Counted from the first letter of the stretch, positions 6,568 to 23,218 are shown. The stretch: DNA of 23,640 nucleotides from Promethearchaeota archaeon (GCA_029838195.1 JALGVJ010000048.1:1-23640), one strand, 5' to 3'. Translations and numbers: made by a program. Notes: generated from the letters alone by a model not told the origin.

Positions 6568-6697
6568 TTTATTGATACTTTTTATTGTCAAAATTAATAT
6601 AATCATGAAGGTTTACATCATTTTTAAATTATCCTTAAATTATAGCGTTGGTTAAAAATAGGTAAAAATAAATTGTAAATGAACATGAAATTAAGAG

Positions 6698-7198
6698 ATG
6701 CTTTTGGGGATCAGCACTGGGAGATGCTTTAGGCATGCTTCTTCCATTCAATCAAAGATAGCACGTGATCATCCGGTAGCAGAGGCTGCTGCTTTTTTCG
6801 GATCATGTTCCGTTGCTCTTGAAATGACTAAAATATCTTCTATAGAAATTATCTCTCCCGTGAAAAAGTTTAATAATTTAACCCATGAAGATTTTCAAAA
6901 AGCCATTTAATTATTAAAAATAAATCTCAAGAAAAGAGAAATTGGAATCTTTAAAATTGATGTAAAGGCGATTTCTTACATTGGACAAGGTTGGATGGGA
7001 GAAGAACCATTTCCCATGGCACTTTATTCTGCAATTTGATATTTTAATGATGTTAAAACTTGCCTTCAAGTTGATGTTAATCAGGGAATAATTAATAATG
7101 ATAATGGCGTTGCTTGCACCTACCCCACAAGAAATATTTTAGAAACATTTCATAGAATGAAAATCATCTCAAAAGATTTGGATAAAATTACTTTCTGA
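6698..7198 (+). pseudogene. Degraded ADP-ribosylglycohydrolase (DraG/ARH family), C-terminal half
   Basis: Reading through TAA 6908-6910 and TGA 7037-7039 in one frame gives QSKIARDHPVAEAAA...AISYIGQGWMGEEPFPMALYSAI*YFNDVKTCLQVDVN...NDNGVAC...ILETFHRMKIISKDL. This resembles ARH motifs THxHPxAxxAA, LGxGWxxEEAxxxALY and AVNxxGDSDSxAxIAG. Confidence 0.7.
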
Positions 7199-7289
7199 AA
7201 GAAAAAAATTAGAACCCATTATTAATAAAGTAATAGAATTCTTCTTTAATAAAAAAAAATATAGTATATAAGTAAAAAAAATAAAAAAA

Positions 7290-7754
7290 TTAAATCGGTT
7301 TGAAATATTCAATGTCCAAAATTCTTTTCCTTGGTTTTTCCTTGAATACCGCTCCCACGCGCATGCCCACCTTTAATTTTTCTGGATCTCCCTCTTTTAT
7401 AACATGGACAAATCCCGTATCGGCGCCATCTAATTTAATAATGCCATACGCAAAAGGCGGTTTTAAGGGCATGACAGGAGTTTCATGCGTGACAACCGTA
7501 AAACCTTCCAGCGTCCCTTGAGGGCCTACTTCTACCCATTCTTCCATCTTTTCAAAACATTCAAAACAAATCATTTTGGGAGGAACAACAACTTTTTTGC
7601 ATTTTGGACATCGAACGCCCCAAATCTTGTTTTTCTTGCCAATTTCGGTAATAAATTTCTCAACATATGGCCCTGCCGTGTGCTTATAAGGTACTTTTAT
7701 CCTTCCTTTAAAGATTTTCTTTTCCATTTCTTCTTCCCTCATGTTTACCACCAT
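7290..7754 (-). CDS. DUF35 Zn-ribbon/OB-fold protein
   Basis: GVRCPKCKKVVVPPKMICFEC Zn ribbon; GTLEGFTVV, IKLDGADT and GMRVGAVF OB-fold segments. Confidence 0.93.
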   Translation of the reverse strand: MVVNMREEEMEKKIFKGRIKVPYKHTAGPYVEKFITEIGKKNKIWGVRCPKCKKVVVPPKMICFECFEKMEEWVEVGPQGTLEGFTVVTHETPVMPLKPPFAYGIIKLDGADTGFVHVIKEGDPEKLKVGMRVGAVFKEKPRKRILDIEYFKPI

Positions 7755-7762
7755 TATTTGTT

Positions 7763-8248
7763 TTACCCCTCCTCAATTATTCTGAAATAGGGAATATCTC
7801 CAAGATTACCTTCTCGCTTTTCTTTAAAAACCGCTTCTACTCTCTGCCCGATCTTGAATTTAGAAGGATCGGTTTCATTAATGAAATGCATCATGTACGT
7901 GTCCGCCCCATCTAATTTAAAGATAGCATAGCCATAAGGAAAAGGACGCATTCCCCCGGTATTCGGGTCAACAAATGGGTAATTCACGACGGTAAAACCT
8001 TCAAGCGTTCCCCTTGGCGGCAATTCCACCATATCATCAACTGTCATTTGTACAAGGCAATCCGCACACACCCCTCGGGGAGGCATGTGCACTTTTCCGC
8101 ATTTAGGACATTTAGAACCCATAATTTTCTTGTTTTCCTTTAGTTCTTCAAAAAATTTCACGGATAATTTTCCCATGGCCCAGTTATAAGGAAGATCGGT
8201 CTTCCATTTTATTTCAAATACTTTTTTCTCTTCTCTTTTTTTACTCAT
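7763..8248 (-). CDS. DUF35 Zn-ribbon/OB-fold protein
   Basis: GSKCPKCGKVHMPPRGVCADC, GTLEGFTVV, FKLDGADT and GQRVEAVF; preceded by a GAGGTGA SD site. Confidence 0.93.
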   Translation of the reverse strand: MSKKREEKKVFEIKWKTDLPYNWAMGKLSVKFFEELKENKKIMGSKCPKCGKVHMPPRGVCADCLVQMTVDDMVELPPRGTLEGFTVVNYPFVDPNTGGMRPFPYGYAIFKLDGADTYMMHFINETDPSKFKIGQRVEAVFKEKREGNLGDIPYFRIIEEG

Positions 8249-8252
8249 AATC

Positions 8253-8259
8253 TCACCTC
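8253..8259 (-). promoter_or_regulatory. Archaeal-type Shine-Dalgarno GAGGTGA overlapping the upstream stop codon
   Basis: Minus strand reads TTGAGGTGAGATTATG; the TGA of the thiolase-like gene lies inside the SD of the DUF35 gene. Confidence 0.75.
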
Positions 8260-9425
8260 AAGGGATATGGATCTTTACCTAAAATTAATATTTCCGTCCA
8301 AAGACTCCCGCCGAATCCCATGGCGAGGGCCGTTTCTACATCAGGCACTTGGCGCTTTTCACCCCTTCCCATGACTTGAATCGCCGCTTCTGCAACTCGA
8401 ACAAGGGCCGTGGCCCCAATAGGATTAGTACTTAACACGCCTCCGGAAGGATTGACGGGCAGTTCTCCGCTCATCTGTGTGATTCCATCGTCCAATAACT
8501 TACCGCCTTGCCCTCTTTCTGCGAAACCCAACGCTTCCGTCCAAGATAATTCTGCCCATGAAGTAGGCTCATAAATTTCGGCAACATCCAAATCTTTAAC
8601 CGGGTCTTTTATACCTGCCTTTTTATACGCTTCTCTTGATGCAATAGTTGCAGTAGGAAGGTCATACATTATGTCATCGGTTCCAAAAGTATAATAATGG
8701 GCCGTAGCAACGGATTTAAACCAAGCAGGATTATCAGTTATTCTTTTCGCTTCCTTTTCATTCGCATAAATGACCGCACACGCTCCCTCGCTCTGAGGAC
8801 AGCAGTCATGCAGGCGAAGGGGATAAGAAATCATTTGAGAACTCATGACATAATCAATGGTAATGTTCGGCATTTGGAGATGGGCAAACGGATTGTTAGC
8901 AGCGTTTCTCCTATTTTTTACCGTGACTTTTGCAGCTTGTTCGGGTGTTATTCCATATCTATCTGCATAAATATTTGCCATTAAAGCAAGGGGGCCTAAG
9001 GCACCCGCAAGAGAAGGGCGTTCCCATACAGGATCGAAAGCCGTGATGATTCCTGTCGTAGCCCCACCTTCATTTAATTTTTCCCAACCTACGACTAGGA
9101 TATTTTTGTATAATCCGGAAGCAATGCTGTAATATCCGCAAATGGCAAGAGATGAGCCTGTTGTGCCCCCAGTGGCTACTTTAACCACGGGCTTTAAATA
9201 ACCAGGTGCTGCATCTATTCCACACCACATTTCTGAAAAATTAATTCCTTCGAAATGATCCATATTTCCGATTAATATAGCATCAACATCTTTTGGTTCC
9301 ATCTGGGCATCGTCCAGTGCCATTTTTACCGCCTCATAGATCATCTCGGGGATATTAACATCCCGTCTCTTGCTTCTAAACTTAGTTTGTCCAATTCCAA
9401 CGACTGCAACATTATTTTTAGGCAT
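8253..9425 (-). CDS. Thiolase-fold (SCP-x type) protein, Ltp3-like putative retro-aldolase subunit
   Basis: VAVVGIGQTKF, NPSGG and GATALVR motifs. The nucleophile loop reads KVATGGTTG (no Cys); AEIYEP and STNPIG replace the usual His-containing motifs. The N-terminus resembles actinobacterial Ltp3 as recalled. Confidence 0.85.
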   Translation of the reverse strand: MPKNNVAVVGIGQTKFRSKRRDVNIPEMIYEAVKMALDDAQMEPKDVDAILIGNMDHFEGINFSEMWCGIDAAPGYLKPVVKVATGGTTGSSLAICGYYSIASGLYKNILVVGWEKLNEGGATTGIITAFDPVWERPSLAGALGPLALMANIYADRYGITPEQAAKVTVKNRRNAANNPFAHLQMPNITIDYVMSSQMISYPLRLHDCCPQSEGACAVIYANEKEAKRITDNPAWFKSVATAHYYTFGTDDIMYDLPTATIASREAYKKAGIKDPVKDLDVAEIYEPTSWAELSWTEALGFAERGQGGKLLDDGITQMSGELPVNPSGGVLSTNPIGATALVRVAEAAIQVMGRGEKRQVPDVETALAMGFGGSLWTEILILGKDPYPLR

Positions 9426-9427
9426 AC

Positions 9428-10585
9428 TTAATATTCACCTCCAAAGATTAATACACAATTGCCTTGGGAACATATACCATTCATTCCATTTGCCAAGCCG
9501 ATTTTGGCATCGGGGATTTGCCGTTTTCCTGCCTTTCCCATTAATTGTAGAGCTATTTCGGCTACTCGAATTAATCCATTGGTCATAGCAGGATTGCTGG
9601 AGAGAACGCCGCCGGAGGGATTGACCGGGATGTTTCCGTTCATTTCCGTTTCTCCGGCATCCATGAATTTTCCTCCTTCTCCCTTGCCGCAAAACCCTAA
9701 TGCTTCATAGCTCATTAGCTCGTGGACAGAAAAGGCATCATAAATTTCTGCCACATCAATTTCTTTTACGGGGTCATTAATTCCCGCCATTTTATAAGCC
9801 TCTTTTGCCGCCAATTCTAATCCGATTAAGTCCGTCATAGTTCGATGTCCAAGGTAATAGGCATCCGTGCAATTCGCATAACCTTTTAGCCATACGGGAT
9901 TATCCGTGAATTGTTTGGCAACCTTCTCATTGGCTAATAATATGGCGACAGCTCCATCAGAAAACGGAGGGAATTCTAACTTTTTCAACGGATAAGCCAT
10001 CATTGGGGAATTTAAGACATCATCCACAGTGATTTCTTGCTGTAAATGGGCAAATGGATTATTCAAGGCATTTTTTCGGTTTTTCACCACGACTTTTGCT
10101 GCTTGTTCTTCTGTAATGGTTCTATATTTGTGCATGTACATATTAGCCATTAAGCCAGCTGCTGAAATCTGATCGAGTCCTAAATGCCGTTGATAATAGG
10201 GGTCGAAAATGGAATTATTGATCAGATATTGATCTCCTTCGGAACATTTCGAGTGCGAAACGACCATTACCGTGTCATATTCTCCCGATAAAATTCTCAT
10301 TGCTCCATACACGTAGGCAAAGGCACCATCTCCGGAAACGCGAGATTCTGATTTTTTCACGGAGCCTACAGCGTCTTGGATTGCCATGTTGGCGATGGTG
10401 CGTCCATCATTGAAGTCGTTGGAACTTGTAATGACGCTTCCAACATCATCATTAGTAATCCCTAACGAGTCATGGAGTTTCTTGACCACTTCGAAAACCA
10501 TTTCCATAATTGTTTGATCTATTTTATTTTCTTCGTATTTTGTTTGGGCGACTCCCACAATAGCTACTTTTCCTAAATTTGACAT
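9428..10585 (-). CDS. Thiolase-fold (SCP-x type) protein, Ltp4-like subunit
   Basis: VAIVGVAQTK, DFNDGRTIAN, ESRVSGDGAFA (no Cys; compare Ltp4 ESHVEMDAAWA as recalled), AEIYDAF and NPSGGVLSSNP. Confidence 0.85.
   Translation of the reverse strand: MSNLGKVAIVGVAQTKYEENKIDQTIMEMVFEVVKKLHDSLGITNDDVGSVITSSNDFNDGRTIANMAIQDAVGSVKKSESRVSGDGAFAYVYGAMRILSGEYDTVMVVSHSKCSEGDQYLINNSIFDPYYQRHLGLDQISAAGLMANMYMHKYRTITEEQAAKVVVKNRKNALNNPFAHLQQEITVDDVLNSPMMAYPLKKLEFPPFSDGAVAILLANEKVAKQFTDNPVWLKGYANCTDAYYLGHRTMTDLIGLELAAKEAYKMAGINDPVKEIDVAEIYDAFSVHELMSYEALGFCGKGEGGKFMDAGETEMNGNIPVNPSGGVLSSNPAMTNGLIRVAEIALQLMGKAGKRQIPDAKIGLANGMNGICSQGNCVLIFGGEY
9435..9442 (-). promoter_or_regulatory. Shine-Dalgarno GGAGGTGA for the gene starting at 9425
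   Basis: Minus strand reads GGAGGTGAATATTAAGTATG, with only 2 bp between the stop and the next ATG. Confidence 0.75.
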
Positions 10586-10710
10586 TTTGGTTCAATTTTT
10601 TAAGATTATTTTTATTTCCCATGAAGAATATAGTTAAATTGATTTTTTGCTATATTTAAACTTTGTATTTCATCATGCTGAATATTTTACATTAGTATTA
10701 AAAAAGAAAG

Positions 10711-11736
10711 ATGAATTCTTTTGATCGGGTCCATGCAGCCTTAAAGAGAGAGCCGGTGGATAGACCTCCTGTTTTGCCCCATGTGGGAGATCATGCCGGC
10801 ATTATCAATGGTTTATCTTATACTACAATGTACACGGATGCCGGAAAAGCTGCTGGCGCCCACTTAAAGGCGTTAAAACTTTATGGATATGATCTCATTA
10901 CCTTTCAAGTAGAACCGAGCTGGCCCGTGGTAGAAGCTTGTGGTGCGAAAATCTTTTTTCCGCCGGATAAAAATCCGTGGATTGTAAAACACGTCATTAA
11001 TGAAGAGAAAGATCTTGAAAAATTAACAATACCCGATTTCATGGAACACGCGAGTTCCTCAGTGATGATTAAATGAACTGAAATCCTTTCGAAAAATGCA
11101 AGCGTGCCGGTAGTAGCGTACATACCGGGTTCCTTAACTTTTTCCATGCAACTCATGCCCTATACACGGGTAATTAAGCTCATGCTGAGAAATCCTCGAT
11201 TCATACATCAACTCATTAAAAGAGGAATTTCCATCATTCGAGCATATTCCAAGCTCATGGAAGAAGCGGGAGCGACCATTTTTATTGTCTGTGAGCATGA
11301 CTTGCAGCTGATTCCGCCTTCCCTTTCAAAAGAATTTAGCATGAATTATCTTCCCAAGCTTCTTGACATTTTTGATTTTAACGTGTTGCATGCGTGCGGA
11401 AAAGTTTCCCCTCATCTTGAATATTTCAGCGAAGATTTTAAGAAAATAAAGAATTTAAATGGCATTAATATAGGAGCAAGCGTCAATATTACACGGGTTC
11501 AAGAATTAGTCGATCATGAGATTGCTATTGCAGGAAATATTGACCACGTGCGATTACTTCCCTTGGGTACTCCGAGAGAGGTTAAATTAGCCGTCCGTGA
11601 GGCTATAAAAGCGAATAAAGGGCTTGAAGGATTCATTGTTGCTCCAGAATGCGAAATAACGGCAGATACGCCCGTTGAAAACGTGAAAGCTCTCGTTAGA
11701 GGGGCTCGAACATGTCCTTATCGTGAAACACATTAA
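10711..11736 (+). pseudogene. UroD/MtaA-CmuA family corrinoid methyltransferase interrupted by one in-frame TGA (nonsense allele or read-through)
   Basis: ORFs 10711-11076 and 11104-11736 share a frame and are joined by MIK*TEILSKNASVPVVAYIPGSLT. Motifs PVDRPPV, LHACG (HxC), IAGNID, GTPREV and IVAPECE give a full-length family member of about 341 codons. Confidence 0.8.
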
Positions 11737-11818
11737 ATCACTAATCTTGATATAATAGATTCCCTTCATTTTTGATTACTTGTGTACTGAATTCGTGGAG
11801 ATTCCCGTGGCCAAGTAT

Positions 11819-11872
11819 AATTAGGATAAGTTTCCTAATCTTTAGATTATAATCCTAATTTTTTTATAAATA
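11819..11872 (+). promoter_or_regulatory. Palindromic operator-like cluster plus TATA-like box upstream of the corrinoid protein gene
   Basis: AATTAGGAT 11819-11827 pairs with ATCCTAATT 11852-11860; ATTAGGA-N6-TCCTAAT at 11820-11839; TTTATAAATA at 11863-11872. Confidence 0.5.
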
Positions 11873-11927
11873 TCTAGGCTATTTTTCCCTAACTAGAAAT
11901 TTTGAACAACAAGATTTGGGATAAAAA

Positions 11928-12551
11928 TTGGAAGCAATTACAAATGTCATAACTAATTTAGAAGAAGAAAAGGTTTTGAAATTAGTAAAAGAAAAAATAG
12001 AAGCGAATGAAGATCCCATTGCCATTTTAAATGCTTTACGAATAGGCATGTCCAAGATAGGAAGTGAGTCGGGCGAAACTGTCTTCTTAACGGATTTAAT
12101 CATGGCGGGTGAGATTTTTAATGAAGCCATAGAGTTCTTGCTACCTAAACTTCAAGGTTCTGCTACTCAGACCATGGGGAAAGTCGTGATCGGAACGGTA
12201 AAGGGTGATATTCATAATATTGGAAAGGATATCGTAATAAATTTCTTGAAAGCAGAAGGATTTGAAGTAATAGATTTAGGCGTGGATGTGCCTCCGGAAA
12301 ATTTCGTGGAAGCAATCAAGCAACATAAACCATCCGTGGTAGGAATGAGCGGACTCTTGACGCTCTCTATTGAACCCATGAAAGAAACTATAGAGGCGAT
12401 TAAGGGCGCAAATTTGAGAGAAAAAGTAAAAGTCATTATTGGCGGGGAAAGAACGGATGCTTCAGTATGCGAATACGTGGGAGCAGATGCTTGGACAAAT
12501 GATGCCGTTGAAGGCATTAACATGATTAAAAAGTGGGTAGGAGGTGCATGA
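11928..12551 (+). CDS. Cobalamin-binding corrinoid protein (MtbC/MttC-like)
   Basis: N-terminal cap domain (FLTDLIMAGEIF), DxHxxG motif GDIHNIG, plus MSGLLT and IIGG; TTG start. Confidence 0.95.
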   Translation: MEAITNVITNLEEEKVLKLVKEKIEANEDPIAILNALRIGMSKIGSESGETVFLTDLIMAGEIFNEAIEFLLPKLQGSATQTMGKVVIGTVKGDIHNIGKDIVINFLKAEGFEVIDLGVDVPPENFVEAIKQHKPSVVGMSGLLTLSIEPMKETIEAIKGANLREKVKVIIGGERTDASVCEYVGADAWTNDAVEGINMIKKWVGGA

Positions 12552-12554
12552 GTC

Positions 12555-13811
12555 GTGAATGATACAGAACAATTAATTAAAGAAAAAATCGAGCGGTTGG
12601 AAACAACGGTTACGGTAAAAGAGCCCGATAGAGTTCCCATTGCTATCGCAACTACATATTTTCCGGCAAAATATGCTGGTGTTAGTTATCATGACATGTT
12701 TTTCAATAACCGAAAATATATTGAAGTAGGAACAAAATTCGCACGAGATTTTAATTGGGACGGGCTTAGCTTGCTCCGTTCCTTTGAGAGCGTTCCCTTA
12801 GGACTTGCCCTAGCGGGTCATGATGCGGATTTGGCGATTTTGGTCGCGGTGTCTTCAGTATTAGCCGGAGGGGCTTCTCATGATATCTTAAAGGATAATT
12901 ATTCTTCAATGCCTGGAAGAGAATTGGGAGAAAATGTCGAATGCCAGTGGGTTATTAAAGGAGAGATAATGAAAGCAGAGGAATACGATCAGTTTATTGA
13001 AAGCCCATTTGATTATCTGATGGGATCCGTTATTCCACGTGCCTATAATAATCTTGCCAATTTTAGTTCTCCTGCGGCAGTGGGTTCTTTATTAAAAATG
13101 GGACAAGAAGTGGCGAAATTCCCGGGATTTTTAACACAATTTATTGGAAAAATGAGACAAGAAGCATGGCTTCCCTGGTATTATGCTTTAGCACCCAATC
13201 CTTTAGATTTCATGGGCGCTTTTTTGCGTGATTTTGACACGCTCTCCTTGGACTTATATAGAATGCCCGATGAGGTGAAAAAAGCGTGTGAAATTTTAGC
13301 CCCGGTGTTAGCTGCAATAGGAAAATTAACTGGTAAAATATCGTTAGAACTCACGGGCTCACGACGCGTGTTTTGCCCAATTTGGTACAACACGTACTTG
13401 TCTCCGGATAAATTTAAAGAATTTCATTTCCCTTATATTAAACAGATTGTAAATGAATTAATAGAAGCGGGTTTCACACCGCTCATGAGCTTGCAAGGAA
13501 GGAGTGATCATCTCTTAGAAATTTTAAAAGAGCTTCCAGAACGCAAGGTGATTTTATGGTTTGATAAAACGGATTTGGTTAAAGCAAGAGATGTTGTCGG
13601 CGATGGTTATTGCCTTGGAGGAGGTGTTCCCTCTTCATTATTAATCGGAGGAACTCCAGAAAAAATAAAAAATCACGTCATAGAACTTTTTAATAACTTA
13701 AAAGCAGGCGGGGGGTTAATAATCTCTACGGAATTCAATGGAATGGGCGATGCTAAGTTAGAAAACGTGAGAGCCTTGACCGAAACCGTCATGAATCAAG
13801 GAAGATATTAA
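12555..13811 (+). CDS. UroD/MtaA-superfamily protein, probable corrinoid-dependent methyltransferase
   Basis: EPDRVPI, DLYRMPDEV, LSPDKFKEFHFP, GGGVPSSLLIGGTPE, GGGLII and KLENVRAL. GTG start 3 bp after the corrinoid gene stop, with a GGAGGTG SD. Confidence 0.88.
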   Translation: MNDTEQLIKEKIERLETTVTVKEPDRVPIAIATTYFPAKYAGVSYHDMFFNNRKYIEVGTKFARDFNWDGLSLLRSFESVPLGLALAGHDADLAILVAVSSVLAGGASHDILKDNYSSMPGRELGENVECQWVIKGEIMKAEEYDQFIESPFDYLMGSVIPRAYNNLANFSSPAAVGSLLKMGQEVAKFPGFLTQFIGKMRQEAWLPWYYALAPNPLDFMGAFLRDFDTLSLDLYRMPDEVKKACEILAPVLAAIGKLTGKISLELTGSRRVFCPIWYNTYLSPDKFKEFHFPYIKQIVNELIEAGFTPLMSLQGRSDHLLEILKELPERKVILWFDKTDLVKARDVVGDGYCLGGGVPSSLLIGGTPEKIKNHVIELFNNLKAGGGLIISTEFNGMGDAKLENVRALTETVMNQGRY

Positions 13812-14963: not shown

Positions 14964-15779
14964 ATGAAAATAGAGGATTTTGAAGATATTAAATACAAAA
15001 AAGAAGAAAATGGAATATGCACCATCACGTTTAGTCGTCCAGAAAGGAGAAATGCAGTGACATACGTGAGCTTCTTAGAAATATATCATGCCTTAGAAGA
15101 CATGGAAAAAGATAAAAAAGCTCACGTGCTCATCCTCACGGGAGACCCGAAAGGGAATGCGTTTACTTCAGGAGGTTATTTTACCAAGGACATGTTTGAT
15201 AAGTTAAAAGAATATCCCGACATTGATTTAATGGATATCGCTCAGAAAAAATTGTGTTTAAAATTATGGGATTTCCCGAAGCCAGTAATCGCCGCCATTA
15301 ACGGATTAGCCATCGGAGGAGGAATCACGTCATTATTAGTAGGAGCAGATTTAATCTACATGTCAGAAGATGCATGGTTAGGATTTTACTTTGTTAAAAG
15401 AGGGATTATACCGGAATTTGCTAATTCTTTCATTCTTCCCTTCCTATTGGGGTTCCAAAAGGCAAAAGAAATTTGTTTTTTCGGGAACAAGATCACTGCC
15501 CAAGAAGCATTAAAATTAGGATTAGTTAACGCAGTCTTACCGCCAGAGAAGCTCATCCCATTTGCTAGGGAACAAGCTCTTAGATTAATTCCTCCCCAGG
15601 GACCTAGTATTGCCATAAAATTAATGAAAAAAACCATTCATGCCTACTTCAGGGACATTTTATCAGATACATTAGATAGGGAAAATAAAGCATTAAGAAA
15701 ATGTTTTACCACGCATGATTTTAGAGAGTCCATGAAAGCATTAAAAGAGAAGCGAGAGCCCGTTTTCATGGGAAAGTAA
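14964..15779 (+). CDS. Crotonase-family enoyl-CoA hydratase/isomerase (isomerase-type active site)
   Basis: TITFSRPERRNA, AFTSGG, PKPVIAAINGLAIGGG, GIIPE, ALKLGLVN and EKREPVFMGK. Confidence 0.93.
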   Translation: MKIEDFEDIKYKKEENGICTITFSRPERRNAVTYVSFLEIYHALEDMEKDKKAHVLILTGDPKGNAFTSGGYFTKDMFDKLKEYPDIDLMDIAQKKLCLKLWDFPKPVIAAINGLAIGGGITSLLVGADLIYMSEDAWLGFYFVKRGIIPEFANSFILPFLLGFQKAKEICFFGNKITAQEALKLGLVNAVLPPEKLIPFAREQALRLIPPQGPSIAIKLMKKTIHAYFRDILSDTLDRENKALRKCFTTHDFRESMKALKEKREPVFMGK

Positions 15780-15823: not shown

Positions 15824-17023
15824 TTACCCCATGGTTAGATCTAGTTCCAAATCAGAAAGTGGATAAGAAATACAAGGGTGAATAAAGCCAATCGCTTGAT
15901 CCACTTCCCGAATAACTACTTGAGGAGGAGTGAATACTTTACCAGAAATGAGTTTCGTGCGACAAAAAGCACATTCACCGCTCCTGCATGCACTCCTTAA
16001 TTGTAGTTCTGACCTCATTTCTCTTTCCAAGCTATTTAATAACGGTTCCGTACATGGCGCTTCAAAAGTCTTTTCTGTTTTCATGCCTGATTTGAAATAG
16101 TGAACTCGTATTTTTACCCGACTAGAATGATCTAACGTGCTGGGCCATCCTATAATCTGGGTTATGTCATCGGGAACGCCAAACGCTTCAAATTTTATGC
16201 GGTGCTGAGGAACTCCCAAATTCTCTAATTCTTTCTTAATGAATTCATGCATTGCCCGATTTCCCACAATATAAAAATATTTCTTTCCAATAGAGCCAAT
16301 CTTGCTTGAAATAATTTCCTCGGTGATGAATCCGCAGTCTCCCTTCCATTCAGGCCCAGGTTCTGATAAGATATAATGAACGTTAATATTATCCCTCCTT
16401 GAGGCTATATCTTCTAATTCTTCCCGAAATAAGATGTCCTCTTCAGTTACGCATCCGAAAATCAGCCACACTTTTAGATCTAATGCTTTTTCAGAAATAT
16501 ACCGCAACAGCGAAATGAATGGCGTGACACCACATCCTCCCGCAACGAATACCAATTCTTTTCCGTGAAATAGAGGATTGTAATACAACGTCCCTAAAGG
16601 TTCCGTTGCCTCTATAATATCGCCCACTTTTAGCTCATTAAAAATATAGGTACTTACAAATCCGCCTTCTTTTTTTCGAATACCTAATTCATAGTAAGCT
16701 AATTGATTTGGAGAGGAAACTAAAGAATAGGGGCGAGTGGTCCGCACGCCATTAATTTCGACGGTTATGCCCACGTATTGTCCCGCTCGAAAGGGAGCCA
16801 AGGGCTGATCGGCTCTTGCAGACACGAGGCGATATAATTTAGTATCCCGAGAGAGCGGTTGAATATCAGTCACGCGTAATACTTGCTTGAGAGGATGCAG
16901 TCTATTACTCAAATTTTCCAACCCATCATGATACCACGGAATGGGTTGAGTCTCGTCTCTCCATTTTTTTAATTTCTCCGCTTGCTGATACTTTTTTACA
17001 TCTTTCATTATATCATCTTCCAC
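15824..17023 (-). CDS. FNR-type FAD/NAD(P)H oxidoreductase with C-terminal [2Fe-2S] domain (KshB/PaaE/Hcr-like)
   Basis: FRAGQY, RPYSL, GGFVS, AGGCGVTP, KFEAF, then CRSGECAFC...HPC; GTG start 3 bp after the upstream stop. Confidence 0.92.
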   Translation of the reverse strand: MEDDIMKDVKKYQQAEKLKKWRDETQPIPWYHDGLENLSNRLHPLKQVLRVTDIQPLSRDTKLYRLVSARADQPLAPFRAGQYVGITVEINGVRTTRPYSLVSSPNQLAYYELGIRKKEGGFVSTYIFNELKVGDIIEATEPLGTLYYNPLFHGKELVFVAGGCGVTPFISLLRYISEKALDLKVWLIFGCVTEEDILFREELEDIASRRDNINVHYILSEPGPEWKGDCGFITEEIISSKIGSIGKKYFYIVGNRAMHEFIKKELENLGVPQHRIKFEAFGVPDDITQIIGWPSTLDHSSRVKIRVHYFKSGMKTEKTFEAPCTEPLLNSLEREMRSELQLRSACRSGECAFCRTKLISGKVFTPPQVVIREVDQAIGFIHPCISYPLSDLELDLTMG

Positions 17024-17026
17024 GCT

Positions 17027-18562
17027 TCACACCCTCCCTTTTTTTTTATCGTTTAAATACATGCCTGCGGCAATTCTACCCCCCAAAATGCACGTAGAGA
17101 ATCCTCCTCCAACATTTGTCCAAGCTCCTACTTGGTATAATCCTGGAATTGCACCCCTACTCCTTAAGCGTAACAAAGGCCCGTTTAATATATCTTGCGT
17201 ATATCCGTAAATGGCACCTTCCATGTTCTTTGAGTAGCGATAATACGTGAGCGGAGTGGCAATTTCTGCGACTTCTATATAATCACGGATGTTTGGACAT
17301 ATTGTCTTTTCAATTAACTCTACCATTTTATCTCCTAAATAATCTTTCAAGTAAAAGTATTGATCAGGTGCCACGCTTTCCCATAATTTTCCAAATTGAA
17401 GGGTCGTGAGAACCAATTGCGTGGTACCCGGCGGCGAAATATCATCGTGAATGTGATTATAACATGCTGCTACCATATATTTTGGAGGTTCTAGCTTCAT
17501 GAAGCATTTAAAAGCTTCATTCATATCCCACGTCGTATTGATGAAATTTTCATGAGCAGTGATACCTAAGTCTTTATAAGATGCATTTAATCCTAGATAA
17601 ACAGACAATCCTGAAGGTCCTATTTCGGGAGCATATACCGCTTTTTTGTAGGAATTCGGAACCTCTTCAGGTGGTAACAATTTCATTGCCGTGCAAATGG
17701 GATTTACGTTTGAAATGACCGCTTTAGCGCGATAAATATCTCCGTTCAGGAGTTTCACGCCTGCCACTTTTCCATTTTCCACTAATATCTGATCTACTAA
17801 TGCATTAAATCGTACTTCTCCTCCTAACCTCCTGAACGCATCTATCATCGCACTGGTAAATGCGTGAGAGCGTCCAACGGGATAAGCCGCACCCCAATTA
17901 AGATAAAACACCAACATTGCAAGATAAGCATAAGCATTCACGCGATCTGGAGGCAGGCCAATGTAGCCCCACAATTGAGAAATGAGGGCAATTAATTTTT
18001 GATCAGTAAAGAATTTTTGATATACTTCTGAAAGCGTGAGTCCAGATATGCGGGGAAGCCATGGATGCTTTTTCAACACTTCAAGAGGTGAAAATCTCCC
18101 ACCTTGCGAGGCAACAAATTCTATTCCGGCTAACAATGCCTTTAACATGTCCATGAAATCCTCTATTCCCTTTTCTTCATGAGGAAATAATTCTATAAGC
18201 TTGCTCTTGTAATCTTCAAAAGTAATAGGCATGGTAACATCAAATCCATCCGTGTAAACGCTGCGATAGAATTCGGGAACGTGTTTAAATTTGATATTAT
18301 CCGGTAATACGCCTAATCTCTCTAAAAATCGCCTTAAACTCCCCTTATTTTCCATCGTACCAATATCGCTCAATTCATGAAGAGCTCCTTCAAATTCGAA
18401 TCGTCCTCTCACGAACGACGTGGCAAATCCTCCAGGAACGTTATGTTTTTCAAGTAATAAGACCTTTTCCCCGTTCAAGGCCAGTTGACACGCCGCTCCT
18501 ATTCCACCGAGTCCAGCACCAACGACAATTACCGAATAATTATCTTTAATACCATTTGTCAT
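17027..18562 (-). CDS. Phytoene desaturase (CrtI)/retinol saturase-like FAD-dependent oxidoreductase
   Basis: IVVGAGLGG dinucleotide fold, LEKHNVPGG...FEFEGALH, ATPLTYYRY...GAIYG and GLYQVGAWT-GGG. Confidence 0.9.
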   Translation of the reverse strand: MTNGIKDNYSVIVVGAGLGGIGAACQLALNGEKVLLLEKHNVPGGFATSFVRGRFEFEGALHELSDIGTMENKGSLRRFLERLGVLPDNIKFKHVPEFYRSVYTDGFDVTMPITFEDYKSKLIELFPHEEKGIEDFMDMLKALLAGIEFVASQGGRFSPLEVLKKHPWLPRISGLTLSEVYQKFFTDQKLIALISQLWGYIGLPPDRVNAYAYLAMLVFYLNWGAAYPVGRSHAFTSAMIDAFRRLGGEVRFNALVDQILVENGKVAGVKLLNGDIYRAKAVISNVNPICTAMKLLPPEEVPNSYKKAVYAPEIGPSGLSVYLGLNASYKDLGITAHENFINTTWDMNEAFKCFMKLEPPKYMVAACYNHIHDDISPPGTTQLVLTTLQFGKLWESVAPDQYFYLKDYLGDKMVELIEKTICPNIRDYIEVAEIATPLTYYRYSKNMEGAIYGYTQDILNGPLLRLRSRGAIPGLYQVGAWTNVGGGFSTCILGGRIAAGMYLNDKKKGRV

Positions 18563-18855: not shown

Positions 18856-20058
18856 ATGTGGTATTTTTTTTCTCCTAACATCATCTATGGAGAAGATGCT
18901 CTTAGCTTTTTGGAAAATATCTCCGGTACTAAATGCTTTATCATCACCGATAAAATCATTGAACAATTAGGATATCTTAAAATCTTAACCGATAAATTGG
19001 ATGCTTACGGCAAAACTTATCAAGTCTTTAATGAAGTAGTACCCGACCCCCGTGAAGAGGGCGTGTTGAAAGCCAGAGAACTTTGTATCAACTACAAGCC
19101 GGATTTGATCATTGCTCTAGGGGGAGGGTCCGTAATGGACACGGCAAAAACCGTATGGGCGTTATATGAGTTTGAAGATTTCCAGCTGGATGACATCCAT
19201 GCTTTCAGAAATGACATGTATGACATAGGTAAAAAAGCAAAAATGATTGCAATTCCCACTACTTCCGGAACGGGGGCTGAAACCACCTATGCCGCCGTGA
19301 TTTCCCGTTTTCAAGACAACATTTGGAAAAAGTTTTTGTATGTTCATCGGGGATTAATTCCTACTTATGCTATCGTCGATCCAATTTTTCCTAAAGGCAT
19401 GCCCAAGGAACTGACTGCAAGCACTGCATTCGATGCCCTTGCTCATGCCGTCGAAGGCATTGTTTCAAGCTGGAGAAATGATTTCAGCGATGCTCTTGCC
19501 TTGAAAGCCATCGAATTAATCTTTCAATACTTACCCATTGCTTATAATGATGGAAATAATCTCGAGGCACGCGATAAATTACATCAAGCCGCCACCATGG
19601 CAGGGCTTGCTTTTGGAAATGGACAGGTGCATATTGGACACGCCATGGGGCATTCTTGGGGTGCTGTCTTCCACACGCCTCACGGGATCTGCGTGGGAAT
19701 TCTTTTAAAATACGTGACACAATTTTGTATAAAAGATCCCAGCGATGCGGGCAAAAAAACCATGGAAATCAATGCTAAATTCGCACGACAACTGGGGTGG
19801 GCAAACTGGGATGAGACAGATGAGAGTGCTGCGAATAAATTAATAAAAAAGATTGAAGAACTCCAAAAAACCGTCAATATTCCTTTTAGTTTCAAAGAAC
19901 TCGGTATTTCTAAAGAAGATTTCGAAAAAAACCTCGACATTCTTGTTGATTTAGTGTATCAAGACAGCAGCGGCGTCATGGCGCCCCGATCTGCTTCAGG
20001 AGATCAGTTTAAAAAAATTTTTCGCTACGCTTATGAAGGAAAAGATATTGATTTCTAA
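18856..20058 (+). CDS. Iron-containing alcohol dehydrogenase
   Basis: ALGGGSVMD, IPTTSGTGAE, DALAHAVE, HIGHAMGH and TPHG metal-binding motifs. Confidence 0.95.
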   Translation: MWYFFSPNIIYGEDALSFLENISGTKCFIITDKIIEQLGYLKILTDKLDAYGKTYQVFNEVVPDPREEGVLKARELCINYKPDLIIALGGGSVMDTAKTVWALYEFEDFQLDDIHAFRNDMYDIGKKAKMIAIPTTSGTGAETTYAAVISRFQDNIWKKFLYVHRGLIPTYAIVDPIFPKGMPKELTASTAFDALAHAVEGIVSSWRNDFSDALALKAIELIFQYLPIAYNDGNNLEARDKLHQAATMAGLAFGNGQVHIGHAMGHSWGAVFHTPHGICVGILLKYVTQFCIKDPSDAGKKTMEINAKFARQLGWANWDETDESAANKLIKKIEELQKTVNIPFSFKELGISKEDFEKNLDILVDLVYQDSSGVMAPRSASGDQFKKIFRYAYEGKDIDF

Positions 20059-21493: not shown

Positions 21494-23218
21494 ATGCAAA
21501 AAGAATTGACTTATTCTTCGAGATTTTGGAAAAAAAATTGGGACCCAGGACTGGATGACTTAGACCCTAAAGAATTTGAAACCACTTACGTTGAAATGTG
21601 CAAACCTACTTTCAAAGAGTTTGCCGATAAAATGGCAGTGGAATATTTGGGCGTTGAGATTACCTTTAAGCAGATCGATGAGTATGCTAACCAATTCGCA
21701 AACATGTTATTGGACAACGGCTTTAAAAAAGGCGATGTCGTGGGTATTAACCTTCCTAACTCACCCCAATATATCATTGCATTACACGGCACTCTTCGTG
21801 CGGGTTGCATCGTGTCAGGCGTATCCCCTCTTCTCTCAGCCATGCAAATTGAATATCAATTGAACGATCTGGGAGGAAATGGCCAGAAACAAGTAGCTTT
21901 AGTAACTCTTGATGCCATTTTTGAGGGCCACATCACGAAAATAGCAGATAAATTAAGGGACACTAAGCTTATCATCACGACTAATATAGCGGATTTCTTG
22001 CCTAAAATAAAACAAATCTTAGGAAAAGCGTTGGGGAAGGTACCAAAAGGAAAAGTAACCCCCTTGCCCGGTAAAACTGTTATGGATTTCATGAAGAACG
22101 TGTTAAACTATCCAAAAGATCCCGTAGAGGTGGACATCTCGCCGGATGACGTCGGCTGGATTCAATACACGGGAGGCACGACCGGGCCGCCGAAAGGTGC
22201 CATGCTAACGCATCGAAATTGCTGTTCGAACATGAAATGCATCGTATCATGGTTGCAATGGGAACGAGGTAAAGGCGTAATGTGCTCGGGATTCCCCATG
22301 TTTCATATTGCGGGTCTTACTGTGGCGGAATCCGCCTTTTATAATGGTTGGAGCCAAATATTAATCCCAAATCCTCGTGACACTGACCACATCGTCAAGA
22401 CAATGAAAAAGTATAAAGTTACTAATCTTGTGAACGTTCCCTCTCTGTATCAGCTCTTAATTAAGAATCCTAAATTTAGGGAGATGGATCATTCAAATTT
22501 GGGCACTTGTGTTTCTGCGGCGAGTCCTTTTCCCAAGGAATCACAAGAAGAGTTAGAAAGCATTATTGGAAAGGGAAAGCTTTTAGAACTTTACGGGATG
22601 ACGGAAACGAGTCCAGTTTCCACCATGAATCCCTCTTTAGGCAAGAAAAAATTAGGAACGATAGGCATACCATTTCTCAACGTGGAGTTAAAGATTGTAG
22701 ATCCCGATACAGGGGAAGAAGTTCCGATTGGAGAGCCTGGTGAGATTTGCATCCACGGCCCGCTTGTAATGAAGGGATATTACAATAAGCCTGAAGAGAC
22801 GAAAAAAGCAATAGATGAGGATGGCTACATGCACACGGGCGACGTGGGCGTCATGGACGAGGACGGGTACATTCGGATAATAGATCGGACGAAGGACATG
22901 ATCATTGTAGGGGGATATAAAGTGTTCTCAACTAAGGTGGAGGATATTTTATCAGAGCACCCGGCGATTGGTATGATTGCTTTAATAGGGGAGCCGAATC
23001 CGGACAGGCCAGGCTCGGAAATCGTGAATGCGTACATTCAGTTAGATCCGGATTATACGTATGATGGTAATGAGGAGGCATTAAAAGAGAGCATCATAAA
23101 CTTTGCGAAGGAGAAGTGTGCTCCATATGAGGTCCCTAAGAAGATTCACATAGTCGAGGAATTGCCCTTAACGGCCGTAGGTAAGATTGACAAGAAAGTA
23201 TTGAGGCAAAAGAAATAA
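21494..23218 (+). CDS. Long-chain fatty-acid--CoA ligase (AMP-forming acyl-CoA synthetase, FadD-like)
   Basis: QYTGGTTGPPKG, YGMTE, HTGDVG, IDRTKDMI and LPLTAVGKID. Confidence 0.95.
   Translation: MQKELTYSSRFWKKNWDPGLDDLDPKEFETTYVEMCKPTFKEFADKMAVEYLGVEITFKQIDEYANQFANMLLDNGFKKGDVVGINLPNSPQYIIALHGTLRAGCIVSGVSPLLSAMQIEYQLNDLGGNGQKQVALVTLDAIFEGHITKIADKLRDTKLIITTNIADFLPKIKQILGKALGKVPKGKVTPLPGKTVMDFMKNVLNYPKDPVEVDISPDDVGWIQYTGGTTGPPKGAMLTHRNCCSNMKCIVSWLQWERGKGVMCSGFPMFHIAGLTVAESAFYNGWSQILIPNPRDTDHIVKTMKKYKVTNLVNVPSLYQLLIKNPKFREMDHSNLGTCVSAASPFPKESQEELESIIGKGKLLELYGMTETSPVSTMNPSLGKKKLGTIGIPFLNVELKIVDPDTGEEVPIGEPGEICIHGPLVMKGYYNKPEETKKAIDEDGYMHTGDVGVMDEDGYIRIIDRTKDMIIVGGYKVFSTKVEDILSEHPAIGMIALIGEPNPDRPGSEIVNAYIQLDPDYTYDGNEEALKESIINFAKEKCAPYEVPKKIHIVEELPLTAVGKIDKKVLRQKK

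Follow-up and report, generated by a model that had tools for sequence, protein, structure and literature searches.

The closest described counterparts of the system considered here are Ltp3 and Ltp4 of sterol-degrading actinobacteria, genetically defined proteins that are the sole studied members of a widespread and otherwise biochemically untouched family. Rhodococcus rhodochrous is reported to need both of them to break down sterol side chains with a C24 branch (Wilbrink 2012), and in a review the two are presented as a heteromeric aldol-lyase that acts after carboxylation and hydration (PMC6678751). For TcLtp2 and CtSal, the two thiolase-fold retro-aldolases of steroid side chains that have been characterised biochemically, mutagenesis identifies the Tyr at the first position of a short motif as the catalytic base (Y294DHF in TcLtp2, Y302DCY in CtSal), with Tyr344 of Ltp2 and Cys304 of Sal as the second catalytic residue (PMC12329534). 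Here we analyse a four-gene operon (positions 7290-10585, minus strand) in a 23,640-nt stretch of DNA from a Promethearchaeota archaeon, the whole of which we call the window. The operon encodes two thiolase-fold proteins, ThlA and ThlB, and two small DUF35 proteins, DUF35_1 (D1) and DUF35_2 (D2). We find that the two thiolase-fold proteins belong with Ltp4 and Ltp3 and have lost the residues of conventional thiolases, and by analogy we lean, modestly, towards reading the operon as a heteromeric retro-aldol-type carbon-carbon lyase of the Ltp3/Ltp4 kind in which ThlB is the catalytic subunit.

An operon of Ltp4-like, Ltp3-like and DUF35 genes

Gene calls from the open reading frame (ORF) listing place the four genes, in order of transcription, at 9428-10585 (ThlA, P0001, 385 aa), 8253-9425 (ThlB, P0002, 390 aa), 7763-8248 (DUF35_1, P0003, 161 aa) and 7290-7754 (DUF35_2, P0004, 154 aa), all on the minus strand. 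They are separated by 2, 4 and 8 bp, exactly the values with which the initial annotation had called them tightly coupled. ThlA and ThlB each carry the Pfam domains Thiolase_N and Thiolase_C_1, and both DUF35 proteins carry zf-ChsH2 and OB_ChsH2_C (PF12172 and PF01796), a rubredoxin-like zinc ribbon with an OB fold after it, with ribbons CPKC...CADC in DUF35_1 and CPKC...CFEC in DUF35_2; every Pfam domain of the four proteins scores above its gathering threshold. The intergenic region 5' of ThlA (10586-10710, minus strand) contains two A/T-rich TATA-like boxes, read from the sequence as a putative promoter (TTTAAATA at 10660-10653 and ATAAAAATAA at 10615-10606). Directly after the DUF35_2 stop codon, three oligo-T tracts (T7, T7 and T9; 7251-7289, minus strand) form a likely archaeal terminator, and the 683 bp past DUF35_2 (6607-7289) contain no ORF of at least 80 aa. 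With TATA-like boxes upstream and an oligo-T, ORF-free stretch downstream, the four genes look like one transcription unit. The spacer itself (6607-7289) holds only short plus-strand ORF fragments (6695-7198) for which a Pfam search returned no match; it may represent the remains of a gene or simply be non-coding.

We judge the genes to be real: their homologues number in the hundreds and evolve under purifying selection, and the gene order is conserved. A scan of genome contigs returned 80 related loci, and the order ThlA-ThlB-D1-D2 is found in essentially all of the Asgard ones (about 55, from Loki-, Hermod-, Hod-, Jord- and Freyarchaeia) as well as in Syntrophaceae/Thermodesulfobacteriota, Acidobacteriota, Bathyarchaeia and others; the alternative order D2-ThlA-ThlB-D1 is seen in some bacteria. 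The closest homologues, at 83-91% identity, come from metagenome-assembled genomes (MAGs) named Promethearchaeota, Promethearchaeia, Hermodarchaeota and Hodarchaeota, which upholds the first impression that the DNA is archaeal. The host is a Loki-type (Lokiarchaeia-type) Asgard archaeon MAG, whose assembly comprises 4.5 Mb in 94 contigs and is 96.6% complete with 7.9% contamination.

Scores against NCBIfam models place ThlB nearest to NF006180/PRK08313 (380.5 bits, cut-off 514), which leads every other family by more than 115 bits, and give ThlA 200 bits on NF005924/PRK07937 (cut-off 419), a model on which ThlB reaches only 119 bits; both proteins lie below the cut-offs for Ltp4 and Ltp3. Comparison with the Rv3521-Rv3523 type was made through syntenic loci of Tsukamurella, Nocardia and Streptomyces from a plasmid collection. 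In Tsukamurella tyrosinosolvens the gene order is crotonase, AMP-forming ligase, a 309-aa tandem-DUF35 protein and thiolase-like proteins of 359 and 390 aa, an order that we take to be the echA19 ... Rv3521-ltp4-ltp3 arrangement of Mycobacteriales. Its Ltp4 scores 593 bits on PRK07937 and its Ltp3 734 bits on PRK08313, both passing the cut-offs, and its crotonase likewise clears the EchA19 equivalog threshold. The tandem-DUF35/Ltp4/Ltp3 triad is also present in Nocardia farcinica and in Streptomyces clavuligerus, where, on pF1D10B (L093:2916-9076), it stands outside any obvious sterol cluster, beside an acyl-coenzyme A (acyl-CoA) synthetase gene.

In an IQ-TREE phylogeny of 41 proteins (LG+C20; supports given as ultrafast bootstrap/SH-aLRT), all proteins that lack both the Cys and the His residues form one clade (100/99). 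Within it, a B clade (99/97, 15 rows) joins ThlB, its bacterial orthologues and a paralogue from the same genome (P0126) with the Ltp3 proteins of Tsukamurella, Nocardia and Streptomyces, and an A clade (86/99, 16 rows) joins ThlA, its orthologues and the paralogue P0125 with actinobacterial Ltp4. In this comparison the window proteins branch with Ltp3 and Ltp4 and apart from the Cys thiolases, and the ltp4 and ltp3 labels first given to them are justified as statements of homology. The clades also share sequence features: a deletion of two to three residues in the nucleophile loop and a D-G/A-A motif are common to P0001, P0125 and Ltp4, and the Y-x-P plus S/T-N-P signature of ThlB recurs in the Ltp3-like proteins of Tsukamurella, Nocardia, Streptomyces and Rhodococcus (TGGT/YEP/TNP in P0002, TAGS/YVP/SNP in Tsukamurella, TGGA/YAP/ANP in Rhodococcus); ThlB and Ltp3 also have T-G/A-G in common. 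A history in which the A/B duplication occurred independently in the anaerobes and in the actinobacteria is 32 log-likelihood units worse (approximately unbiased test, p=0.036, a weak test with the group named post hoc) and is also contradicted by the shared indels. By these sequence comparisons, ThlA and ThlB are true but distant relatives of Ltp4 and Ltp3.

Like the actinobacterial loci, the operon consists of an adjacent Cys-less paralogous pair, Ltp4-like first and Ltp3-like second, together with two DUF35 modules, and it has a crotonase and an acyl-CoA ligase nearby. It differs in sequence (41% identity to the actinobacterial protein for ThlB, about 26-30% for ThlA), in a ThlA that is much less degenerate than Ltp4, and in its setting, an anaerobic archaeon with BKACE, a CrtI-like flavoprotein, an Fe-dependent alcohol dehydrogenase and an aldehyde:ferredoxin oxidoreductase (AOR) among the neighbours. 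The DUF35 modules are separate genes here, each with a full Cys4 ribbon, whereas in the Tsukamurella fusion the N-terminal half lacks the ribbon cysteines. Even so, the initial annotation's view of them as the counterpart of the double-DUF35 protein is matched reciprocally in all three actinobacterial proteins: DUF35_1 scores higher in BLAST against the C-terminal than the N-terminal half (73 versus 67, 72 versus 53 and 70 versus 56 bits), and DUF35_2 higher against the N-terminal than the C-terminal half (84 versus 66, 76 versus 62 and 71 versus 67 bits). The CxxC...CxxC ribbon is kept in every orthologue, 77 of 77 for D1 and 63 of 63 for D2.

Active-site residues of the two thiolase-fold subunits

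Motif positions were set by HMMER alignments to solved thiolases and by MAFFT alignments. The relevant motifs are ATGGTT (T85-G86-G87-T88), EIYEPT and STNP in ThlB, and VSGDGA, EIYDAF and SSNP in ThlA. The column of the nucleophilic Cys is occupied by Gly87 in ThlB and falls in a shortened loop (RVSG--DGAF) in ThlA. Where SCP2 thiolases have the HDCF motif, ThlB reads YEPT and ThlA YDAF, so that Tyr stands for the His in both, and the acid/base Cys is replaced by Pro287 in ThlB and by Ala in ThlA. The His of the GHP motif has given way to Asn in both (Asn334 in ThlB, Asn331 in ThlA). The motifs that the initial annotation had picked out (no acylated Cys, no GHP His, and EIY) are thus all present and align at the nucleophile loop, HDCF and GHP. 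With none of the four catalytic residues left (nucleophilic Cys, two His and HDCF Cys), ThlA and ThlB are not conventional thiolases, as it had also held. Source records label such genes "acetyl-CoA C-acetyltransferase" or "thiolase family protein"; a thiolase annotation of these genes cannot be right, and this affects Asgard metabolic reconstructions that count them as thiolases. Nor is the module the housekeeping thiolase of its host, since canonical Cys thiolases are present elsewhere in the genome (contigs C35, C62 and C65, with all four catalytic residues kept on C35 and C62).

Across a sample of 82 B-type (Ltp3-like) and 74 A-type (Ltp4-like) sequences, the two subunits behave very differently. 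In the B-type, Tyr285, Asn334, Thr85 and Gly87 are each found in 82 of 82 sequences, Gly86 in 79, Thr88 in 78 and Pro287 in 75, and the superfamily core motifs EK, CCPxSxGA and NPSGG are retained. In the A-type, many superfamily-conserved core columns have drifted, and the Tyr column holds Ser in 31 sequences, Tyr in 28, Phe in 12 and His in three; the window's ThlA is one of those with Tyr. The earlier statement that both proteins carry EIY therefore stands for the window, but it is the Ltp3-like subunit alone that has the Tyr throughout. Because it is invariant there and S/Y/F/H in the A-type, ThlB is probably the single catalytic subunit, which would give one active site per heterodimer, on the Ltp3-like side, and ThlA is probably non-catalytic or accessory. 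This contrast between an invariant and a drifting subunit predicts which of the two is catalytic, and it would be of use for studies of the M. tuberculosis proteins too.

The AlphaFold2 model of ThlB alone (pLDDT 83.9, pTM 0.89) is of low confidence only at residues 60-78 and 121-140, which may correspond to the flexible loops that give the substrate cleft of Sal and Ltp2 its shape (PMC12329534). The predicted fold is that of the SCP2/DUF35-partnered thiolase subgroup, with Z scores of 54.2 to 6ESQ, 51.5 to 7YVY, 50.3 to 4YZO and 50.2 to BbsB (7PXP), then 45.7 to Ltp2 (6OK1) and 45.6 to Sal (9MYR), and about 38 to classical thiolases. Fold does not discriminate an aldolase from a thiolase here, with true thiolases (Z 50-54) matching at least as well as Ltp2 and Sal.

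Among solved structures, 6ESQ and BbsB are the best structural matches and offer an architectural template, a thiolase-fold dimer with DUF35 staples. They differ in being true thiolases with Cys, His and Cys, a class of which the window's genome has its own canonical copies on C35 and C62. The uncharacterised ST0096 of Sulfolobus tokodaii (4YZO) is the best match by sequence (E 5e-50 and 7e-47); it is likewise archaeal, of SCP2-type fold and without a nucleophilic Cys (NTSGSGG), but it keeps both catalytic His (HDMA and GHP) and is not of the Tyr/Asn type. TcLtp2-ChsH2 (6OK1) and CtSal-Shy (9MYR) share with the window proteins the missing nucleophilic Cys, the first-position Tyr, a DUF35 partner, the SCP2-type fold and a predicted action downstream of a hydratase. 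Unlike the present module, with its two thiolase-fold genes and stand-alone DUF35 genes, they are homodimers on the DUF35 domain of a MaoC hydratase (a Pfam search finds no MaoC gene in the window), and by NCBIfam scores they fall outside the Ltp3/Ltp4 clade (PRK07855: 169 and 149 bits).

Candidate reactions of the proposed complex

On the retro-aldol reading, and going by the solved DUF35 complexes, ThlA and ThlB would form a heterodimer with one DUF35 protein at either side. A crotonase-type hydratase would make the 3-hydroxyacyl-CoA substrate, and CoA-independent retro-aldol cleavage would release an aldehyde or ketone together with acetyl- or propionyl-CoA. The Tyr of EIY aligns with the HDCF His, a position that is equated with Ltp2 Tyr294 and Sal Tyr302 (PMC12329534), and Tyr285 of ThlB would accordingly be placed to act as the base that deprotonates the 3-hydroxyl. 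ThlA would serve as a degenerate structural partner, and the zinc-ribbon/OB DUF35 proteins may staple the complex together and shape the substrate cleft. The Fe-dependent alcohol dehydrogenase (17 loci) and AOR (9 loci) that recur as neighbours would fit an aldehyde product.

Several observations weigh against this assignment. The column of Ltp2 Tyr344 is Asn (Asn334 in ThlB and Asn331 in ThlA, 49-50 residues past the Tyr) and that of Sal Cys304 is Pro287 in ThlB and Ala in ThlA; because both equivalents are absent, ThlB would have a base of known type but neither of the acid residues of these aldolases. The predicted fold of ThlB is closer to true thiolases (Z 50-54) than to the aldolases (Z 45.6-45.7). 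The A-type subunit, for all its drift, keeps the Asp of the shortened loop in 74 of 74 sequences and a C-terminal-loop Cys in 72 of 74, and ThlA may have a further role. The hydratase of the window lies 4.4 kb off, outside the operon. Finally, since our literature search found no Ltp3/Ltp4 enzyme assay (and no paper on the module in archaea), the aldolase role of the family as a whole rests on genetics and analogy.

The absence of the acid residue of known aldolases would also fit a different Cys-independent reaction of a CoA ester, namely decarboxylation of a malonyl-type or beta-carboxy-acyl-CoA, or hydrolytic or retro-Claisen cleavage of a beta-keto compound. We consider this unlikely, though it has precedents in ketosynthase subunits of the chain-length-factor type and in the weak activity of TbSLP, a protein with a Sal-like YDCF motif whose sole measured activity is slow malonyl-CoA decarboxylation (PMC12329534). 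It would also suit the neighbours BKACE, with its beta-keto acid chemistry, in 39 loci and a 3-hydroxyacyl-CoA dehydrogenase that follows the module in L081. Against it stand the invariant Tyr at the aldolase base position, the adjacency of crotonases rather than carboxylases, and CtSal, which is without malonyl-CoA decarboxylase activity (PMC12329534).

Aldol reactions are reversible, and the complex could in principle run in the synthetic direction, adding acetyl- or propionyl-CoA to an aldehyde or ketone and so supplying lipid or secondary metabolism with a branched or hydroxylated acyl-CoA. Biosynthetic complexes of DUF35 and thiolase-fold proteins do exist (the archaeal thiolase/3-hydroxy-3-methylglutaryl-CoA synthase and the PhlABC and MucABC acyltransferases), and in Streptomyces clavuligerus a terpene synthase gene is found 750 bp away from the triad. 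We nevertheless regard a synthetic role as improbable: the neighbours are catabolic (ligase or CoA-transferase, acyl-CoA dehydrogenase (ACAD) with electron-transfer flavoprotein, crotonase, BKACE and AOR), and so is the sole genetically studied member.

The loss of four canonical catalytic residues, together with a ThlA that is degenerate at many superfamily columns, would also be expected of a catalytically dead assembly that acts as a scaffold, as a carrier of lipids or acyl-CoAs (a "lipid-transfer protein") or as a regulator of the beta-oxidation enzymes nearby, and a small SCP2-domain protein neighbours the module in 16 loci. That the complex is dead seems to us equally improbable, because ThlB has not decayed in this manner: its core motifs EK, CCPxSxGA and NPSGG are retained, and Y285, N334 and T85-G-G-T, described as strictly invariant across Asgard archaea, Acidobacteriota and Actinomycetota (Gly86 and Thr88 at the counts given above), form an active-site-like pattern. 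A thiolase that uses another Cys as its nucleophile, for example C209 (82 of 82) or C216 (78 of 82) of ThlB, is very improbable, as C209 belongs to a CCPxSDGA motif that true Cys thiolases also have and do not use as nucleophile, and both catalytic His and the acid/base Cys are gone too.

Neighbouring genes, distribution and paralogues

The retro-aldol reading can be compared with the gene neighbourhood, for which the ORFs of the 80 loci were clustered and annotated with Pfam and NCBIfam. Of 79 loci, 46 have a crotonase within 8 kb of the module; in most Lokiarchaeia it immediately follows D2, and in Acidobacteriaceae it immediately precedes ThlA. Other recurrent neighbours are BKACE (39 loci), an AMP-forming ligase (30), ACAD (20), an OYE/FadH-type reductase (19), the SCP2-domain protein (16) and AOR (9), and CoA-transferase pairs occur in bacterial and Jord/Frey-type loci. 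The window itself has a crotonase-type enoyl-CoA hydratase at 14964-15779 (plus strand; Pfam ECH_1), a candidate supplier of 3-hydroxyacyl-CoA whose Asgard orthologues near the module are 67-82% identical. It is followed by an FNR-like FAD/NAD/2Fe-2S reductase at 15824-17023 (minus strand; 25 related loci) and a flavoprotein of the CrtI/amine-oxidase family at 17027-18562 (minus strand; 22 related loci), both annotated by Pfam and NCBIfam; Amino_oxidase, the Pfam family of the latter, is also found at an Acidobacteriaceae locus. Further on come the Fe-dependent alcohol dehydrogenase at 18856-20058 (plus strand; Pfam Fe-ADH), which could process an aldehyde product, and an AMP-forming acyl-CoA ligase at 21494-23218 (plus strand; Pfam AMP-binding), whose orthologues at related loci are 45-75% identical. 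The crotonase that elsewhere stands next to the operon (orthologous to L012:10274-11098), the BKACE pair and ACAD are found on contig C22 in this genome. This setting, beta-oxidation-like, with a hydratase that may feed the module and aldehyde-handling enzymes at hand, fits a retro-aldolase.

The neighbours do not fix the substrate. The crotonases score nearly equally on many NCBIfam models (146 and 200 bits on EchA19, where the cut-off is 400), ACAD resembles both short-chain and glutaryl types, and the ligases are generic. We saw no sterol-pathway genes in the window or the 80 related loci (no genome-wide search was made), and gene context lends no support to the sterol and hopanoid chains that the initial annotation had listed as candidate substrates. 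One more specific proposal, which we hold to be unlikely at present, is that the module supplies a missing step, the breaking of a carbon-carbon bond, in an oxygen-independent breakdown of acyl-CoAs that are beta-methyl-branched and derived from isoprenoids, such as those from phytol or archaeal lipids in sediments. The crotonase would then hydrate a 3-methyl-2-enoyl-CoA to a tertiary 3-hydroxy-3-methylacyl-CoA that cannot be oxidised, ThlAB-DUF35 would cleave this to a methyl ketone and acetyl-CoA, and the CrtI-like flavoprotein, FNR-like reductase, SCP2 protein, Fe-dependent alcohol dehydrogenase, AOR, ligase and BKACE would handle the surrounding steps. If this were true, the Ltp3/Ltp4 family would deal with beta-branched acyl-CoAs in general, and the C24 branch of sterols would be one special case among them.

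On the other side of the operon, between a DUF2284 gene and ThlA, lies a corrinoid methyltransferase block (10711-13811, plus strand) with a split URO-D gene, a B12-binding corrinoid protein and a second URO-D-like gene. In the closest relative (L010), DUF2284 directly abuts ThlA and the methyltransferase block is missing. A link between the module and corrinoid methyltransferases (aromatic O-demethylation) was considered and rejected, the block being absent from L010 and from nearly all loci, and we regard it as a local insertion. The URO-D/MtaA-like gene (10711-11736, plus strand) is split by an in-frame TGA at 11074-11076, with both halves matching PF01208 in register. Selenocysteine at this TGA was likewise rejected: four homologues (58-59% identity) have a conserved Gly there (MI[EK]GT), which leaves a GGA-to-TGA nonsense mutation or a sequencing error.

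A ThlB orthologue (E <= 1e-100) is present in 44 of 301 sampled Asgard genomes, with 34 of 68 in the window's own family, five of six and three of three in two others, and none in several large families. Because this distribution is patchy and the Asgard sequences are nested among bacterial ones in the tree, horizontal transfer of the module is suggested. That roughly half of the genomes sampled from the window's Lokiarchaeial family have the cassette, and that it occurs in Syntrophaceae, Acidobacteriota and Bathyarchaeia, also means that its role is not tied to sterols, and it points to a general anaerobic cutting of acyl-CoAs beyond the reach of beta-oxidation.

Contig C8 of the same genome holds another, divergent module (locus L009:9362-12757, plus strand), with the gene order DUF35-A-B-DUF35. 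Its DUF35 genes (155 and 173 aa) flank the thiolase-fold pair, which overlaps by 23 bp and consists of the A-type P0125 (380 aa, with Phe at the Tyr position) and the B-type P0126 (423 aa, with YAPF and TNA). Three Cys-less paralogues that keep both His (HDAF and GH) and resemble ST0096 (4YZO) lie at C64:1000-2256, C22:224156-225577 and C34:32117-33340, those on C64 and C22 each directly followed by a DUF35 gene. The C22 paralogue sits with ACAD and two BKACE genes, a block that stands directly upstream of the module in many other Lokiarchaeia. Elsewhere in the Asgard sample, the genomes of family f21 (G028, G047, G064, G070 and G088; probably of Jord/Freyarchaeia type) have four to six ThlB-like genes each (E <= 1e-100), some with a single internal TAA or TGA that suggests introns or recoding.

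At nine of the 57 related Asgard loci, a 30-nt insert that contains in-frame stop codons sits exactly between the Asn54 and Met55 codons of the ThlB orthologue (L010:8163-8192, L021:1997-2026, L040:354-383, L046:8163-8192, L048:6270-6299, L052:8163-8192, L053:8160-8189, L056:8046-8075 and L061:8163-8192). ThlB of the window has no insert, and its equivalent site lies between 9264 and 9263 on the minus strand. The insert is likely a messenger RNA mini-intron of the tRNA-endonuclease type, judged by a potential fold that resembles a bulge-helix-bulge. In this fold a 4-bp helix between the end of exon 1 and the 3' part of the intron (GGCA/TGCT, GGTA/TGCC or GGTA/TACT) is combined with a 9-bp inner hairpin, and both junctions lie 2 nt past the strands of the 4-bp helix. 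The pairing holds in 97.4% of cells, with compensatory changes at four pairs, compared with 32-43% in slid controls.

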